DNA from: a virus
Lineage: Duplodnaviria; Heunggongvirae; Uroviricota; Caudoviricetes
IMG/VR virus record: IMGVR_UViG_2740892439_000015
Length of the DNA stretch: 4,101 nucleotides
Direction: 5' to 3' (one strand)
Below the pieces are notes generated by a model. It ran no database searches. It was given only the letters and a program-made list of their open reading frames with translations, and was not told the DNA's origin. Positions 298 to 4,101 of the stretch are shown piece by piece (positions within the stretch are counted from its first letter, which is position 1; each line of letters starts with the position of its first letter). The position numbers and the translations under genes are program-made.

Positions 298-1125
298 TTA
301 TTTCACCGGAACAAACGGAACAGCTGTATTACTGGTCATATACTGCGGTAGCGTTCCGTTCCATTTGTTGATCGCTTCCAACTCCATAACGCCGGGGTTC
401 TGGCGCAGAGCCTCACCGCGTAAACGAATGGCATCAGCTTCAGCCTGGGCTTTTGTGCGAATGGCATCGGCCTGCCCGGCAGCTTCTGCGCGCAGCATGT
501 TGGCTTCTGCTTCGCGTTGCTTGACTTCCTGCTCGCGTTGCAGAGTTTTCTGGTTCGCCGTGACTTTGGCATTAATGCTGTCGATAACGGTTGGCGGGTA
601 CTCCGGCTTGCCCACATATGAGAGGCTCATTACCTGAATACCGATGGGCGTCATTTCTTCCTGGATGTCTTTAAGAGCTGCATCCAGTAGTTCAGACTTG
701 CCACCGTCGATAAATTTGTCGGTGGTCATTTTGCTGGCCAGTCGGTTAAGTGCGTCGGCAATCTTCTGGCGCAGGTCGGTGTCGGTAATGTCATCCACGC
801 CTTTGCGGTAGGTCTGAAATACAGTTGTGACTTTTGCCGGATCAACCTTGTAAGCTACACCAATGTGGTAACCAATTGTTGTCCCGTCGCTCATTTGGAA
901 GCTGAACGGATCATCATAGGTCTTCATTTGCTTAAAGGTAGGGAAGATATAAACTTCTGTGTTCCAGCCTGTCCAGTAGCGACCAACGCCAACTACTTCG
1001 CCGACACCTTTATCATCCCCCAGCTTATTTACTTTGATCCCTACATTGCCTGGTTCTACCCGGTCGCATCCGGTCAGACATAAAGAACCCAAAATAATCG
1101 CTGCACTAATCAACGTTTTTTTCAT
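298..1125 (-). CDS. SPFH/band-7 (prohibitin/stomatin/HflK-C superfamily) lipoprotein, 275 aa
   Basis: Complete ORF in the supplied track. N-terminus MKKTLISAAIILGSLCLTGC is a typical lipoprotein signal peptide with an L-T-G-C lipobox. The central region resembles an SPFH domain, and the C-terminus is Ala/Glu/Gln/Arg-rich and looks coiled-coil (EQEVKQREAEANMLRAEAAGQADAIRTKAQAEADAIRLRGEAL), as in band-7 proteins. Family call is from sequence character and memory, not a search. Confidence 0.85.
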   Translation of the reverse strand: MKKTLISAAIILGSLCLTGCDRVEPGNVGIKVNKLGDDKGVGEVVGVGRYWTGWNTEVYIFPTFKQMKTYDDPFSFQMSDGTTIGYHIGVAYKVDPAKVTTVFQTYRKGVDDITDTDLRQKIADALNRLASKMTTDKFIDGGKSELLDAALKDIQEEMTPIGIQVMSLSYVGKPEYPPTVIDSINAKVTANQKTLQREQEVKQREAEANMLRAEAAGQADAIRTKAQAEADAIRLRGEALRQNPGVMELEAINKWNGTLPQYMTSNTAVPFVPVK

Positions 1126-1342: not shown

Positions 1343-1400
1343 CCTCTCACTCCATTATTTAACGAATAAAAAAGCTGCGGTGCCTGGTGCCTCCAGGTGA

Positions 1401-1423
1401 CGTTAACCAGTTAACAATTAACG
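1401..1423. promoter_or_regulatory. candidate operator: three TTAAC repeats (cgTTAACcagTTAACaaTTAACg) with flanking CGTTAA/TTAACG inverted symmetry, about 60-80 nt upstream of the operon start
   Basis: Seen directly in sequence. Position is in the presumed promoter region of the small-membrane-protein/SPFH operon. No sigma-70 -35/-10 pair could be assigned confidently. Confidence 0.25.
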
Positions 1424-1492
1424 CCGGGATGTTTGACTTAACCACTAAGGAGGATTGTTTTAACTGTTCCGCGTGCGCTTAGCCGCATTCAC

Positions 1493-1604
1493 CGCAATGG
1501 TAAGAGCACTTGGCTGGCTGGGCGGCGATGACGCCTGTACGCATTTGGTGATCCGGTTCTGCTTCCGGCATTCGCTTAATTAGCCAAATACTCTTAACGT
1601 TGCG
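1493..1604. repeat. tRNA-3'-end-associated long-stem inverted-repeat element, copy E1 (degenerate)
   Basis: Arms 1493-1513 (CGCAATGGTAAGAGCACTTGG) and 1584-1604 (CCAAATACTCTTAACGTTGCG): 17 Watson-Crick pairs, 1 T.G and 3 mismatches over 21 positions, enclosing 70 nt. The 3' arm ends 1 nt from the CCA end of the Ser-like tRNA (1606). Plus-strand flank GCATTCAC and arm core GGTAAGAGCA are shared with E2/E3. Confidence 0.6.
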
Positions 1605-1605
1605 C

Positions 1606-1692
1606 TGGCGGAGAGTAATGGAATCGAACCATCATCGCTTGCGCAATGGGACGGTTTTCAAGACCGCTTGAGCACCATGCTCCCTACTCTCC
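1606..1692 (-). tRNA. type II (long variable arm) tRNA, anticodon UGA; tRNA-Ser(UGA)-like, atypical D-region
   Basis: Reverse complement is 87 nt: acceptor GGAGAGT/ACTCTCC (7 perfect pairs), anticodon arm GCGGT-CTTGAAA-ACCGT (U33, anticodon TGA, A37), 17-nt variable region containing a 5-bp stem with GCAA tetraloop (ATTGC-GCAA-GCGAT), T-arm GATGG-TTCGATT-CCATT, discriminator G, encoded CCA. The D-region (AGG GAGC-ATGGT-GCTC AA) has 3 nt before the D-stem and a short loop, so function is uncertain. Confidence 0.6.
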
Positions 1693-1826
1693 AGTGATTG
1701 TGGCGACCGGTGCTGATCTCCGGCTTGCGGTTATTTCAGACTCTCACGGGCGTTTAATTGCCCCGCCGAACAGCTCTTTTCCGCAATAGCTGCAATGTCT
1801 TTCGCGCATCAGCCTGCGCATTCACC

Positions 1827-1918
1827 ACAATGTTGAGAACACTGGTTGTTACGCTGCAACGCAACATTTATTCGTAGATTGGGATATGACCCCGTTACGC
1901 CAGTGTTCTCAACGTTGT
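1827..1918. repeat. tRNA-3'-end-associated long-stem inverted-repeat element, copy E2
   Basis: Arms 1827-1845 and 1900-1918 pair over 19 positions with a single T.G (core GTTGAGAACACTGG / CCAGTGTTCTCAAC perfect), enclosing 54 nt. The interior has a hairpin that is U-A/G.U-paired only when read from the minus strand (TTGCG-TTGCAG-CGTAA). The 3' arm abuts the Thr-like pseudo-tRNA 3' end at 1918. Plus-strand flank GCGCATTCAC is shared with E1. Confidence 0.65.
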
Positions 1919-1982
1919 AGTGCCGGTTACGGTTCCGGCCAGGCCTCTTCCTCAACGGGGTGTTCTCCATACGGACTACCGT
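1918..1982 (-). pseudogene. pseudo-tRNA remnant, chimeric: tRNA-Thr-like 3' end joined to tRNA-Tyr-like 5' segment
   Basis: 1918-1932 TAGTGCCGGTTACGG resembles the tRNA-Thr 3' end at 2147-2162 (TGGTGCCGGTTAACGG). 1970-1980 TACGGACTACC resembles the tRNA-Tyr 5' region (TACGGACTAAC, 2298-2308). No acceptor stem or cloverleaf can be formed. Confidence 0.35.
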
Positions 1983-2058
1983 TTATTGGTCGTTCCTGCG
2001 GTTTATGTTGTGAAGCCAGATGCTTATCTTCTGGTTGCTTCTAGGAGCTGCACTTCAT

Positions 2059-2145
2059 CACAACGGTAAGAGCATTTATGGCTCGCATCGCGGGAAAAAG
2101 CCCACGGTAGAGAGTCGAACTCTACAAATGCTCTTACCTGTTGTG
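2059..2145. repeat. tRNA-3'-end-associated long-stem inverted-repeat element, copy E3
   Basis: Arms 2059-2077 (CACAACGGTAAGAGCATTT) and 2126-2145 (AAATGCTCTTACCTGTTGTG) form 19 bp with one bulged T, enclosing 48 nt. The interior has two hairpins on the minus strand: GTAGAG-TTCGACT-CTCTAC (T-arm-like loop) and CGUGGG-CUUUUU-CCCGCG (needs a G.U, so pairs only as minus-strand RNA). The 3' arm ends 1 nt from the tRNA-Thr CCA end (2147). Confidence 0.65.
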
Positions 2146-2146
2146 T

Positions 2147-2318: not shown

Positions 2319-2395
2319 TGGCGATGGTGGGTGGATTCGAACCGCCGACCGACAGCTTAGAAGGCTGCTGCTCTATCCTACTGAGCTACACCATC
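2319..2395 (-). tRNA. tRNA-Arg (anticodon UCU, reads rare AGA codons)
   Basis: Reverse complement is 77 nt: acceptor GATGGTG/CACCATC, D-arm GCTC-AGTAGGATA-GAGC, anticodon arm GCAGC-CTTCTAA-GCTGT (anticodon TCT), variable CGGTC, T-arm GGCGG-TTCGAAT-CCACC (one C/A mismatch), discriminator G, encoded CCA. Same architecture as E. coli argU but divergent sequence. 5-nt spacer to tRNA-Tyr. Confidence 0.8.
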
Positions 2396-2855
2396 ACTTG
2401 CCGGGTACGTCTCCGGCGAGGGCTTCCACCTCCGTATGCTTTTCGGCGCACCGCGCCCTAGCTGCAATTCGGTAACAGGGGATGCACAACCCTGGCTTCC
2501 AGCGTGATTAGCGCCTTCAGCATGACGGGATATACCCGTTACAATAAATTCCCCCAGGATGCCATTAAGCAATGGCTGTTACGCGGGAGGGACGTAACAG
2601 GTAAGGGCGCTGACCAGAAAGACCTGACCCTTCTCATTCATCTGGTTAATCACACCAGCGCCCTTGCCTGTTATGCCTCCCCGTTCCCTAATACACAGAC
2701 GGGGACACTCTGCGGTCGATTTTTTGACGGGGGACGACTCATACCCCGTGGCGTCTGGCTTCTTAGGCCGCTACCATCATCAGATCATCGTTTGCATTTA
2801 CTTTAATGGTCGGTTTCTAAACCGCCGCAAAGTCGCTAACCATGACGAAAACCCT

Positions 2856-2879
2856 AAAAAAGCCCACCCGAAGATGGGC
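2856..2879 (-). terminator. rho-independent terminator (minus strand) with UUCG tetraloop
   Basis: Minus-strand RNA reads GCCCAUC-UUCG-GGUGGGC (7-bp stem, one G.U; stem 2862-2879) followed by UUUUUUAGGGUUUU. Coordinates cover the stem plus the first U-run (2856-2861); the U-rich tract continues to about 2848. On the plus strand the stem is preceded, not followed, by the A/T run, so it is unidirectional. Confidence 0.6.
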
Positions 2880-2898
2880 AAATACGCTACATCTCACA

Positions 2899-2977
2899 CA
2901 AGAAAGAAGCCGACTGCCTGAGCTGGATTCACTTTCAAATGCCCGCTGAAAGGGATCACAAGTCGGCTTCTTTCTTG
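2899..2977. repeat. perfect 17-bp inverted repeat (CAAGAAAGAAGCCGACT / AGTCGGCTTCTTTCTTG) with 45-nt spacer
   Basis: Arms 2899-2915 and 2961-2977 are exact reverse complements. It lies about 20 nt upstream (minus-strand sense) of the terminator at 2856-2879. No credible ORF overlaps it. Confidence 0.6.
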
Positions 2978-3182
2978 ATGCGGCACTCTCTCCGCCCGTC
3001 ACCGCTCTTTCTCGGTTGTCGCGTTTGCCACGCCAGCCATAACGAGGTTTAAAGTCTTTTCACGTTCCCATCACTCGACTGCCGTCTGTGGCTGTTCGTT
3101 GCAGCGGGGGTGCCACCCCCTGGGGATATCCCGGCCTTACCCCATTCTTTCAAGACACAATGCAAGGCCACATCCGCATAGG

Positions 3183-3270
3183 TGCATTACCGCAACATTA
3201 AGGAGACTCAGGCAAAAGGTAACCGCCACAAAAATCCCTATGCCTCCTTAATGTTGAAGATGTGCATTGA
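3183..3270. repeat. perfect 13-bp inverted repeat (CAACATTAAGGAG / CTCCTTAATGTTG, 38-nt spacer) bracketed by direct repeats GTGCATT
   Basis: Arms 3193-3205 and 3244-3256 are exact reverse complements. GTGCATTAC at 3182-3190 and GTGCATTGA at 3262-3270 flank them as direct repeats. Confidence 0.5.
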
Positions 3271-3627
3271 TGATTAGATGCAGCATGTACCGTTACTCTC
3301 TGCCGGACCATCATCAATGAACACCTTAAAAAGACCTTCCGTGGCTCAACATGTATTGTCGTTTACTCCGCAAAGTGCTCTCTCTGAAACCACTTTCCGC
3401 ACTAAACCTGTTGAACTTTGGTCTGCTCGGTGCCAAAGCGTGCTCTTGGTTTACTATACTTTTCTAACACTTTAATTTGTTAATTGCCGGTGGGTAAACA
3501 ATAACCAATAAGTGACTATCAAGCCCAGCAAGCGAAACGTGGGTACCGCCCACCAGCAAGGAAAATTCTATGTTAAGTCATCTTCACAATCAATACATTC
3601 GAATTGTGATTTTAGATTTCTAACACA

Positions 3628-4101
3628 TTATTTCCCGTAAAGATCTTCTACACCCCCATTCTTCTTATCCCATTCGTTCGCCCATACCCGGCAAGCGTCA
3701 ATGATTTCCTGACGACGATCTCCTTGCATGAACGGAATGCTTTCATGGAAACAGCTTGGAATGCAGGCCACACTGAATACAGTATCAAACTCCGTCTGCT
3801 TGATTGCCTCCAGCGTCTCCGGACGCATTTTTAATTCATCGATTGGCGCATCCTTAGAGTCCATAATCCGGCGATATAAGCGCGGAAAATCCGTCTCCAG
3901 GTACGCCATAATTTTATCTGCGAGACATTCGTCTATGTCGGTATTCCAGTCCTTTTCGAAGCCCGGCAGGCGATAGTAAAGCGGCGTTCCCCATACCGAT
4001 GGGATCACATCCATCGTTAACAGGCGATTAGTTCTGATTTGTTGATGGTAATTAGCCGTCAGCAGTGCTTCGCCACGCTGCCCAGTTTCCGCAACCAGGC
4101 C
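3628..4101 (-). CDS. hypothetical protein, C-terminal portion (gene continues beyond window end)
   Basis: Minus-strand ORF with stop at 3628-3630. The track starts it at the Met at 4014, but the same frame stays open through 4101 (my translation of the extension: GLVAETGQRGEALLTANYHQQIRTNRLLT before MDVIPS...), so the true start is probably outside the window. Acidic, soluble-looking sequence with no membrane segment; no family recognised. Confidence 0.65.
   Translation of the reverse strand, partial: GLVAETGQRGEALLTANYHQQIRTNRLLTMDVIPSVWGTPLYYRLPGFEKDWNTDIDECLADKIMAYLETDFPRLYRRIMDSKDAPIDELKMRPETLEAIKQTEFDTVFSVACIPSCFHESIPFMQGDRRQEIIDACRVWANEWDKKNGGVEDLYGK

Follow-up and report, generated by a model that had tools for sequence, protein, structure and literature searches.

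A protein-free RNA island with a tmRNA-like tag module in the probable operon leader of a D6/P1-type phage-plasmid

What is encoded by a stretch of some 1.2 kb of phage DNA in which no credible gene can be found? The question is raised by positions 2398-3627 of a 4,101 nt sequence from a tailed phage (IMG/VR record IMGVR_UViG_2740892439_000015), hereafter referred to as the window, in which an earlier reading of the sequence alone (the original prediction) had placed a candidate small RNA (sRNA) locus. Sequence searches matched the window to D6 and the P1-family phage-plasmids, and the 1.2 kb stretch itself to unannotated DNA of ~90 kb Escherichia coli plasmids at 98% identity. Every feature of the window lies on the minus strand, on which the end of a pmgS-like gene is followed by the gene-free stretch, tRNA-Arg, tRNA-Tyr, tRNA-Thr and tRNA-Ser genes, a small membrane open reading frame (ORF), an SPFH lipoprotein gene and a tRNA with a CAT anticodon. 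The stretch is probably a protein-free RNA island of multiple modules, forming the leader of a repressor-controlled early operon in a D6/P1-type phage-plasmid; one of these modules resembles the messenger half of a transfer-messenger RNA (tmRNA, or SsrA).

The longest ORFs in the stretch encode 100, 85, 65, 64 and 61 amino acids (aa), and a Pfam search of the ORFs within it gave no match. The only match to the PHROG database is that of a plus-strand ORF (2504-2806) to phrog_27020, a family of unknown function. In P1 and 47 other loci the homologous frame lacks a usable start; its length varies between 4 and 180 aa, and at certain loci it crosses a tRNA-Arg gene antisense. As the frame is not maintained in relatives, the ORF family is spurious, and phrog_27020 appears to have been built from spurious ORF calls opposite the tmRNA-like module. 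Indels of 1, 2 and 4 nt separate the relatives of the stretch from one another, and the conservation profile is uneven, positions 2987-3205 being strongly conserved and 3206-3627 more variable than the adjacent coding sequence. Hence the description of this region as poor in ORFs and lacking any credible gene is borne out.

The arrangement of the window follows that of the ban operon leader of P1, with the same order, strand and terminator. In the P1 annotation (NC_005856), the promoter Pban with its C1 operator Op72ab precedes a 'dicF-like region', tRNA-Asn, tRNA-Thr, tciABC, tRNA-Ile and ban, and the 3' end of the 'dicF-like region' is the terminator hairpin of the window, GCCCATCTTCGGGTGGGC, with its T tract. 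The segment of ~455 nt from this terminator to the first tRNA is ~89% identical between P1 and the window. The two leaders differ further upstream: the window and D6 lack a conserved body of ~110 nt, which lies between the hairpin (or promoter) and the terminator in P1, in three E. coli/Escherichia marmotae plasmids and in a Shigella plasmid; they have a 700 nt leader with other modules in place of the P1 promoter; and their operator is of the GTGTTAGAAA type, as opposed to ATTGCTCTAATAAATTT in P1. Judged by this synteny and sequence similarity, the leader appears to be the counterpart of the P1 operon running from Pban through the 'dicF-like region', tRNA and tci genes to ban.

The two structures on which the original prediction was based, a minus-strand intrinsic terminator and a perfect 17 bp hairpin just upstream of it, are both real (Table 1). 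The terminator, in which a 7 bp stem with five GC pairs carries a UUCG loop and leads into a U6 tract, has been conserved in D6, P1 and all relatives, and variants such as GCCCACC/GGTGGGT stay paired via a G.U pair that is possible on the minus-sense RNA only; the number of terminators found by the scan of the window (three, against 1.5 expected) is not significant as a count alone. By our own arithmetic, a perfect repeat of 17 bp would be expected ~2e-5 times by chance in 4.1 kb. This hairpin contains an inner hairpin at 2952..2932, and in other lineages both of its arms have changed with pairing kept (CAAGATAAAAGCCGACT/AGTCGGCTTTTATGTTG and CAACATACAAGCCGATT/AGTCGGCTTGTATGTTG), indicating a structural constraint. 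Hairpins of the CA(A/C)NA...TTGTG family flank modules throughout these RNA islands, and the 17 bp hairpin and the other long module-flanking hairpins are candidate RNase III-type processing stems. The distance from the pmgS-like stop codon down to the start of the terminator is 749 nt, in agreement with the value of about 750 nt originally given. What had been proposed from this spacing, either an independent sRNA or a long 3' untranslated region, holds in so far as this is a minus-strand locus for non-coding RNA; the locus appears, however, to be neither one sRNA nor an extension of the upstream gene, as a conserved predicted promoter and two operator-like sites between the pmgS-like stop codon and the terminator point to a separate, repressor-controlled operon leader.

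Both hexamers of this promoter are conserved in all eight D6-type relatives, as are the two predicted operators (OA and OB), whilst the flanking sequences have diverged. Allowing up to one mismatch, GTGTTAGAAA occurs 15 times in the D6 genome, as against a mean of 5.8 and a maximum of 10 in shuffled sequences. Thirteen of these copies are intergenic, and several coincide in position with C1 operators of P1, those in front of c1, lpa, ref and the hrdC-dmt operon, the last of them bivalent, and that of the immI region. The extended D6-type consensus, tRTGTTAGAAAAyTAAwwT, has a TTAGA core in common with the P1 operator; the P1 C1 operator consensus itself occurs neither in the window nor anywhere in the D6 genome. 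The repeated, asymmetric operator of ~17 bp that is typical of P1-family C1-controlled promoters therefore has a likely equivalent in this motif, and the promoter at 3593..3565 would be C1-controlled, with a predicted start near 3558 and a leader of ~700 nt to the terminator. A second promoter at OB was considered and rejected, the -10-like hexamer that follows this operator not being conserved. The two most divergent D6-type plasmids (L007 and L008 among the loci that we compared) have a third, inverted operator copy (TTTCTAACAT), aligned to window 3590-3605 and abutting the -35 hexamer; this forms a bivalent site like that of P1 Op72ab, and is degenerate in the window.

The original prediction drew attention to the sequence upstream of the terminator; the most unusual element of the locus, at 2852..2683, lies directly 3' of it and had gone unnoticed. 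Here, a reading frame without a start codon begins with GCA in the context in which tmRNA resumes translation, encodes the decapeptide ANDDLMMVAA and ends at a stop codon. Among 144 loci this tag takes the form of 16 peptides in 25 nucleotide versions, all of exactly 10 codons followed by TAA and none with an internal stop. The peptides start with AN(D/E)(D/E/N) and have a hydrophobic or alanine end, as in ANDDVVLMAA, ANDEQFLAVA and ANEEMYLAVA, amongst others; further tags are ANDNAYLMVA in phiMAM1, ANDNVFLAVA in wV8, where the stop codon is TGA, and ANEDTYLAVA in SSU5. The same peptide may be encoded with synonymous differences, neither of the other two frames stays open, and the absence of the out-of-frame AUG from SSU5 excludes an alternative AUG-initiated frame, leaving the GCA frame as the only conserved one. 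Around the resume codon, the module aligns nearly base for base with the consensus of the permuted-tmRNA and beta-tmRNA models of Rfam, the match in the window ending at the tag stop.

The structure that follows the tag may also have parallels in tmRNA. In a 57-sequence MAFFT alignment, a structure composed of a stop-codon hairpin and two H-type pseudoknots had a covariation score of 0.244, compared with 0.110 in shuffled alignments, none of 500 of which reached the observed value, and 0.05-0.15 when the register was slid. Support from covariation falls on helices 4 and 5, in the two downstream pseudoknots; helix 4, which joins the loop of the first pseudoknot to downstream sequence, has changes on both sides at all four of its pairs and is paired in 94.7% of cases. 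The stop-codon hairpin was recognised by eye, and is paired in only 67% of the cells of the alignment.

This module is not confined to phage-plasmids. The first ~190 nt after the terminator gave matches of 70-80% in 206 phage records, and a related query gave 753; its hosts include HK620, FelixO1-like phages, Ackermannviridae, N4-like phages, SSU5 and phages of Erwinia and Aeromonas. Among the matches listed, the module is annotated as nothing or as 'hypothetical protein', and never as RNA. Of 5,426 complete E. coli genomes, 660 have the module, at 582 places on plasmids and 140 on chromosomes. In DS8, wV8 and SSU5, the position of a good sigma-70 promoter predicts an RNA with its 5' end a few bases ahead of GTTTTCGT. 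The DS8 island as a whole sits between genes of the opposite strand, and in phiMAM1, Uz-1 and wV8 the module is found within tRNA arrays. In HK620 it is bounded by PR'/qut, which includes a first terminator-like hairpin, and by tQ, the late terminator. The late leader of lambda is the source of the PR'-tR' '6S' RNA, and Stx phages have tRNA genes at that position. The module of the window likewise lies behind a terminator in a regulated non-coding leader; it differs from the lambdoid late leaders in being under the predicted control of a repressor, rather than Q antitermination, and no antiterminator is known in P1. Relatedness to the put antiterminator of HK022, for which the phage record has no annotation, received no support. 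A search of the accessible literature for the tag peptides and for tmRNA-like elements of phages found no earlier description, though one may exist; the tag module is thus apparently both widespread and undescribed so far.

Other parts of the leader are similarly shared. The region as a whole is a mosaic, assembled from six or more RNA modules that also occur in lambdoid prophages and virulent phages. Between 3196 and 3098 is a unit resembling the prophage-borne sRNAs STnc100 and PasD, characterised by a GTTGYGGT(G)AATGC 5' strand, a 5 bp hairpin and a complementary 3' strand; the arrangement of a long hairpin followed by GTTGYGGT is also found in HK620, DS8 and Mixta. Forty-eight distinct versions of the unit were present across the fetched loci, and covariation is seen both in the closing stem (GTTGTGGT/ACCACAAC, GTTGCGGT/ACCGCAAC and ATTGTGGT/ACCACAAT) and in the adjacent hairpin (CCGGG/CCCGG, CCTGG/CCAGG, GTCGG/CCGAC and GCCGG/CCGGC), the latter being the last arm of the unit (GGGGG-TGGCA-CCCCC in the window), which abuts the 3' strand. 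It is homologous to the segment after DicF in the Qin prophage, which itself scores weakly as Rfam STnc100; the 3196..3098 copy was not reported by the Rfam scan. On our own reading of the modelled folds, such units may be tRNA-like in shape. A second unit, at window 1376-1496 on the minus strand, reads ATTGCGGTGAATGCGG...CCTGG-AGGCA-CCAGG-CACCGCAGC followed by T6, and differs from STnc100 (RF02076) in scoring 39.4 bits against a gathering score of 47; it is just upstream of the 78 aa membrane ORF (1106-1342), the same arrangement as that of the STnc100-like segment and dicB in Qin. STnc100 and PasD are described as prophage-borne sRNAs in a 2026 preprint on Pas and STnc100, which does not mention tmRNA.

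The conserved core that follows this unit (3097..2980) is common to a Pantoea plasmid, a Mixta prophage and contig L018, with 1 nt indels, and in the prophages a CI-type repressor gene precedes the long non-coding stretch in which it is found. Comparison by eye shows that both sides of the stem that bears its GAGAGA loop differ among lineages. A tag-like frame within the core (GCA AAC GCG ACA ...) was discarded, neither its stop nor its length being conserved in Mixta. On the minus strand of the Pantoea plasmid (L010, 2208-2359), the core and a long hairpin with a 130 nt loop precede a 99 nt tRNA-like sequence with an insertion, which scores 45 bits as an Rfam tRNA, is not called by ARAGORN and overlaps a weak RprA-like match (48.8 bits against 70); after it comes a terminator, TTTGCCCATTCCTGTAATGGGCATTTTTT, resembling that of the window.

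Several results weigh against this interpretation of the locus. The promoter and the operators are predicted, as are termination and processing, and the terminator stands between the promoter and the tag module and tRNA genes, which could be expressed only by read-through or from an internal promoter that escaped detection. The consensus fold of the core received no covariation support among five sequences, and several stems of the tag module pair in only 60-70% of cells, partly as a result of MAFFT offsets. The Rfam scan of the window, P1 and relatives gave no match to DicF (RF00039) at E<=1, the same search finding the DicF of Qin at 76.7 bits, and the ~20 nt 5' of the terminator are not conserved among lineages, arguing against a conserved base-pairing seed there. 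ARAGORN called no tmRNA in any lineage, and all Rfam tmRNA matches are below the gathering score of 47, the window scoring 24.1 bits with RF04321, Uz-1 giving the best score for this model, 33.4 bits, and RF01850 reaching 11.8-18 bits. When 13 lineages were searched for a partner of the 5' end of the module in the form of an acceptor stem, T-arm and CCA, none was consistent, and three lineages have no T-arm within 1.1 kb; G3:U70 was present in only one neighbouring tRNA-like element, that of wV8. A BLAST comparison with E. coli ssrA, on which we do not rely, gave the tag start and an 11 nt match, GUGGAAGCCCU, only, similarity beyond the tag start being at chance level.

One alternative is that the locus produces a single independent trans-acting sRNA of the Hfq type, ending at 2856 and composed of a hairpin, a short single strand and the terminator, which would base-pair with host mRNAs as a positional analogue of DicF; we consider this possible, if doubtful. 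The case for it starts with the dicBF operon of Qin, a repressor-controlled early operon with a long non-coding stretch, as the present locus probably is. Chromosomal copies of the ~110 nt body, 77-79% identical, occur in 4,242 of the 5,426 E. coli genomes, and in a K-12-type strain the body is directly 5' of DicF, in the ydfC-dicB spacer of Qin; hence the terminator of the window occupies the position of DicF, as it does the 3' end of the P1 'dicF-like region', with an STnc100-like unit next in both systems. By this synteny through the P1 body, the locus would have the form of a repressor-controlled prophage operon leader ending at an intrinsic terminator. The layout is also typical of such sRNAs, with a structured 5' part, an AU-rich single strand, a GC hairpin and U6, and the STnc100 and PasD relatives are established prophage base-pairing sRNAs. 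However, the DicF sequence is absent from this locus, the body present in P1, L006-L009 and Qin has been lost from the window and D6, and the ~20 nt where a seed might lie are wholly different among lineages (GUGAGAUGUAGCGUAUUU in the window, ACCGCGAGUGGGAUAUUU in L006 and ..GUUACGAGCUUCCAGUUU in P1). Furthermore, there is no promoter close to the hairpin, and a scan of the window and its relatives against Rfam, as had been suggested alongside the original prediction, reported tRNAs only above threshold, with no DicF, C4, put-like, GOLLD, ROOL or ribozyme families. Such an sRNA is nevertheless compatible with the multi-module leader, as one of its processing products.

Two further proposals concern the tag module rather than the leader as a whole. 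The module is like tmRNA (RF00023, RF01850 and RF04321) in its resume context, GCA start, and 10-residue tag of the form AN(D/E)(D/E)xx..(A/V)A, and probably in a stop-codon hairpin and downstream pseudoknots. It is unlike tmRNA in lacking the tRNA-like domain, with its 7 bp acceptor, T-arm, CCA and G3:U70; in having two pseudoknots only, with no PK1 equivalent established; and in being encoded by phages, within RNA islands. As no tRNA-like half was found, the term used here is tmRNA-like messenger domain rather than tmRNA. That it is a working template for trans-translation, charged or delivered via a separate or adjacent tRNA-like piece and adding ANDDLMMVAA or its relatives to stalled chains, for instance when host defences cut tRNAs or mRNAs, is a suggestion that we make only tentatively. 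It would account for the retention, in ~27 versions with synonymous changes, of the frame length, the stop, the AN(D/E)(D/E) N-terminus and the hydrophobic or alanine C-terminus, for the conservation of the GCA frame alone and for the modelled hairpin and two pseudoknots that would follow the tag, as in tmRNA. The module often adjoins tRNA genes and tRNA-shaped units, and tmRNAs made of two pieces occur in alpha-proteobacteria and in certain other bacteria. Against this stand the lineages, forming the majority, in which no tRNA-like domain of alanine identity was detected, those without any T-arm nearby and the subthreshold Rfam scores.

The one candidate partner of alanine identity is in wV8 (L157, 865-946), where an uncalled tRNA-like element ~40 nt after the tag module has the acceptor CGGGGCG/CGCCTCG with G3:U70, a T-arm GCGGG-TTCGAGT-CCTGC, a 3' ACCA and an anticodon-like loop CUUCUAA, and lacks a normal D-arm. 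Odd 'tRNA-Cys' genes with the anticodon ACA are situated beside the tag module in two unrelated virulent phages, Uz-1 (L048, 1673-1751; 79 nt) and phiMAM1 (L046, 1280-1371; 92 nt); these were considered as the tRNA-like half, with a negative result, only the wV8 element fitting this role.

Alternatively, the module may be a mimic, a decoy or a relic of a captured tmRNA, which binds S1, the ribosome or RNases or has some other RNA function, with the tag retained for reasons acting at the level of RNA. This seems to us rather unlikely. It is favoured by the missing tRNA-like domain, by the spread of variable tag columns over all three codon positions (6/4/8) and by the excess of non-synonymous over synonymous pairwise differences (1216 against 314); what structure alone leaves unexplained is that in all versions a run of exactly 10 sense codons closes with an in-frame stop, positions 3-4 are acidic and the tag ends in Ala/Val-Ala. 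There is a precedent for a partial tmRNA in phages: a 2014 survey that included RefSeq viruses and plasmids listed phage ssrA in mycobacteriophages and Bacillus phage G only, plus a fragment in DS6A consisting solely of the tRNA-like domain and discussed as a possible inhibitor (PMC4131195). The present modules resemble these phage-borne elements of the mycobacteriophage Bxz1 group, Bacillus phage G and DS6A in that they too are carried by phages, and differ in consisting of the messenger half only and in occurring in enterobacterial phages, the known examples being canonical, or restricted to the tRNA-like domain, and found in phages of Actinobacteria and Bacillus (PMC4131195).

That the inverted repeats act mainly as DNA, whether as protein-binding palindromes or as recombination hot spots that generate the mosaic, would fit the homology breakpoints at module borders beside hairpins (2884, 2898 and 3098) and the observation that both strands fold better than shuffled sequence; it is very unlikely, given that G.U pairs are tolerated on the minus-sense strand only (in the terminator, the L009 hairpin variant and the P1 stem of inverted repeat I2), that covariation in the pseudoknots follows a strand-specific RNA logic and that the DS8 and wV8 promoters are oriented so as to transcribe the same strand. 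Finally, the suggestion that the stretch is a decayed pseudogene region, for which the PHROG match might be cited, is scarcely tenable when that match is an ORF-calling artefact opposite a conserved RNA, no protein homologue was found in Pfam, indels among relatives break the frame, conservation peaks at covarying RNA helices and homologous modules occur in unrelated phages without gene remnants around them.

Table 1. Position and supporting evidence of features in and around the 1.2 kb stretch, in minus-strand order.
Feature	Coordinates	Strand	Evidence and remarks
pmgS-like gene, 3' part	3628..4101	-	stop codon 3628-3630; matches D6 orf9, 'PmgS-like head morphogenesis'
Predicted D6-type C1 operator OA (AATGTGTTAGAAATCTAAAAT)	3609..3629	-	motif GTGTTAGAAA; conserved in 8 relatives
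Predicted sigma-70-type promoter TTGATT-17-TAGAAT	3565..3593	-	promoter scan; predicted start near 3558
Second predicted C1 operator OB (AAAGTGTTAGAAAAGTATAGT)	3453..3473	-	~100 nt within leader; core conserved
Long hairpin CAACATTAAGGAG.../...CTCCTTAATGTTG	3193..3256	-	inverted repeat I6; precedes tRNA-shaped unit
STnc100/PasD-like tRNA-shaped unit	3098..3196	-	minimum free energy fold: multi-arm junction, closing stem GTTGCGG/CTGCAAC
Conserved core	2980..3097	-	invariant GCTGGCGTGGCAAACGCGACAACCG (3037..3013); GAGAGA-loop hairpin (2996..2980)
17 bp perfect hairpin	2899..2977	-	repeat finder; arms 2899-2915/2961-2977, 100% complementary, 45 nt loop
Intrinsic terminator GCCCATCTTCGGGTGGGC plus T6	2856..2879	-	terminator scan; GCCCATC-TTCG-GGTGGGC + TTTTTT; conserved
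tmRNA-like module	2683..2852	-	5' motif, tag frame, stop-codon hairpin, pseudoknots A and B
5' motif GTTTTCGT..AGCGACTTTGCGG	2852..2825	-	part of tmRNA-like module
Tag frame GCA AAC GAT GAT CTG ATG ATG GTA GCG GCC TAA (ANDDLMMVAA, stop)	2795..2763	-	resume-codon context UAAAU/GCA
Pseudoknot A	2748..2714	-	part of tmRNA-like module
Pseudoknot B	2714..2677	-	part of tmRNA-like module
Long hairpin GGAGGCATAACAGGCAAGGGCGCTG / CAGCGCCCTTACCTGTTACGTCCCTCC	2586..2680	-	inverted repeat I2; alignments; CACAACAGGTAAGAGC hairpin family, closes tmRNA-like module in all lineages
P1/D6-specific structured segment reaching tRNA-Arg	2396..2585	-	~90% identity to P1; near-invariant in D6-type copies
tRNA-Arg(UCU), first of downstream array (Arg, Tyr, Thr, Ser, Met/Ile2-type CAT)	2319..2395	-	ARAGORN and Rfam

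The segment specific to P1 and D6 at the end of the stretch (2396..2585) has a fold z-score of -3.3 and includes the hairpin GGAGG-TGGAAGC-CCTC (2433..2418), which motif comparison also identified in DS8, Uz-1 and L018. In its general form, GG(A/C)GG-TGGAA(G/A/T)C-CC(T/C)(C/G) after AAAA(A/G)CA(G/T)A(T/C)GG, this hairpin recurs at window 2418-2433 (minus strand), at 2398-2416 in L047 and in L018 and L048; it is here that the 11 nt match is located, to the PK3 region of E. coli tmRNA, which could be either chance or a trace of tmRNA ancestry.

Further along the operon, tRNA genes are separated by long hairpins of the CACAAyGkTrAGArC family (window 2057-2146 and 1823-1922, minus strand). The loop of the first has a T-arm-like sequence, GTAGAGTTCGACTCTCTAC, and T-arms of the GGGTTCGAATCCC type are found in such loops in other phages (L052 and L056), suggesting that these are tRNA-derived modules. 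The tRNA at window 1606-1692 (minus strand) is atypical: ARAGORN identifies it as tRNA-Ser(UGA), the best Rfam match is to tRNA-Sec at 44.6 bits, just below the cut-off of 47, and its homologue is 'tRNA-OTHER' in RefSeq and a tRNA whose amino acid was not called by tRNAscan-SE in the D6 record. That record (L001, NC_050154) has three tRNAs annotated on the plus strand at 4125-4830, whereas the homologues in the window and in RefSeq plasmids, and ARAGORN run on D6 itself, place them on the opposite strand; the annotation is probably a strand error. In place of the tciA/tciB of D6 and P1, the window has the SPFH/band-7 lipoprotein gene (298-1125, minus strand), ~89% identical to genes of lambdoid phages (P88, phiP27 and Stx phages); this replacement by a gene of lambdoid type indicates a mosaic junction within the operon.

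Taking the stretch as a multi-module leader, its operation can be envisaged as follows. In the prophage state, a C1-type repressor bound at the two GTGTTAGAAA-type operators would keep the promoter at 3593..3565 shut; upon infection or induction, host RNA polymerase would transcribe the minus strand, most transcripts ending at the terminator (2879..2856) to give a leader RNA of ~700 nt with the STnc100/PasD-like unit, the core and the long hairpin. The long covarying hairpins between modules are probable cleavage sites, at which stable RNAs may be released in the manner of DicF excision from the dicBF transcript. Transcripts that read through would reach the tmRNA-like module (2852..2683) and then the tRNA array. 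In this scheme the anatomy, conservation, covariation and synteny of the locus are established by the sequence comparisons, and its transcription, repression and processing, with any part in translation, are inferred. The most likely role of this module would be in ribosome rescue or tagging during phage growth, either as a template needing a partner tRNA-like RNA or as a mimic competing with host tmRNA.

P1, HK620 and FelixO1-type phages are among the best studied, and still the module is unannotated or a 'hypothetical protein' in the records listed among the 753 phage matches and in the 660 E. coli genomes that have it. Even if it is a mimic only, the 'tRNA regions' of phages emerge as RNA islands of reusable modules, made up of processing-type hairpins, STnc100/PasD units, DicF-type terminators and the tag module; the coordinates and consensus sequences can now be used to annotate such modules, and a spurious protein family, phrog_27020, is removed. 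We would speculate that unrelated families of enterobacterial phages, including the P1/D6 and SSU5 phage-plasmids, P22-like HK620, FelixO1-like phages, Ackermannviridae and N4-like phages amongst others, carry an unrecognised class of 'half-tmRNA', a messenger domain with pseudoknots that is devoid of a tRNA-like domain and encodes its own 10-residue tag, which redirects or competes with host trans-translation, possibly in opposition to defences that cut tRNA or mRNA; this counter-defence reading would fit the presence of tRNA genes and tRNA-shaped sRNAs in the same islands. If the tag frame is used, then these phages would supply their own template for ribosome rescue and tagging, minus the part thought to be essential for tmRNA function, raising the question of how trans-translation may be entered or subverted.

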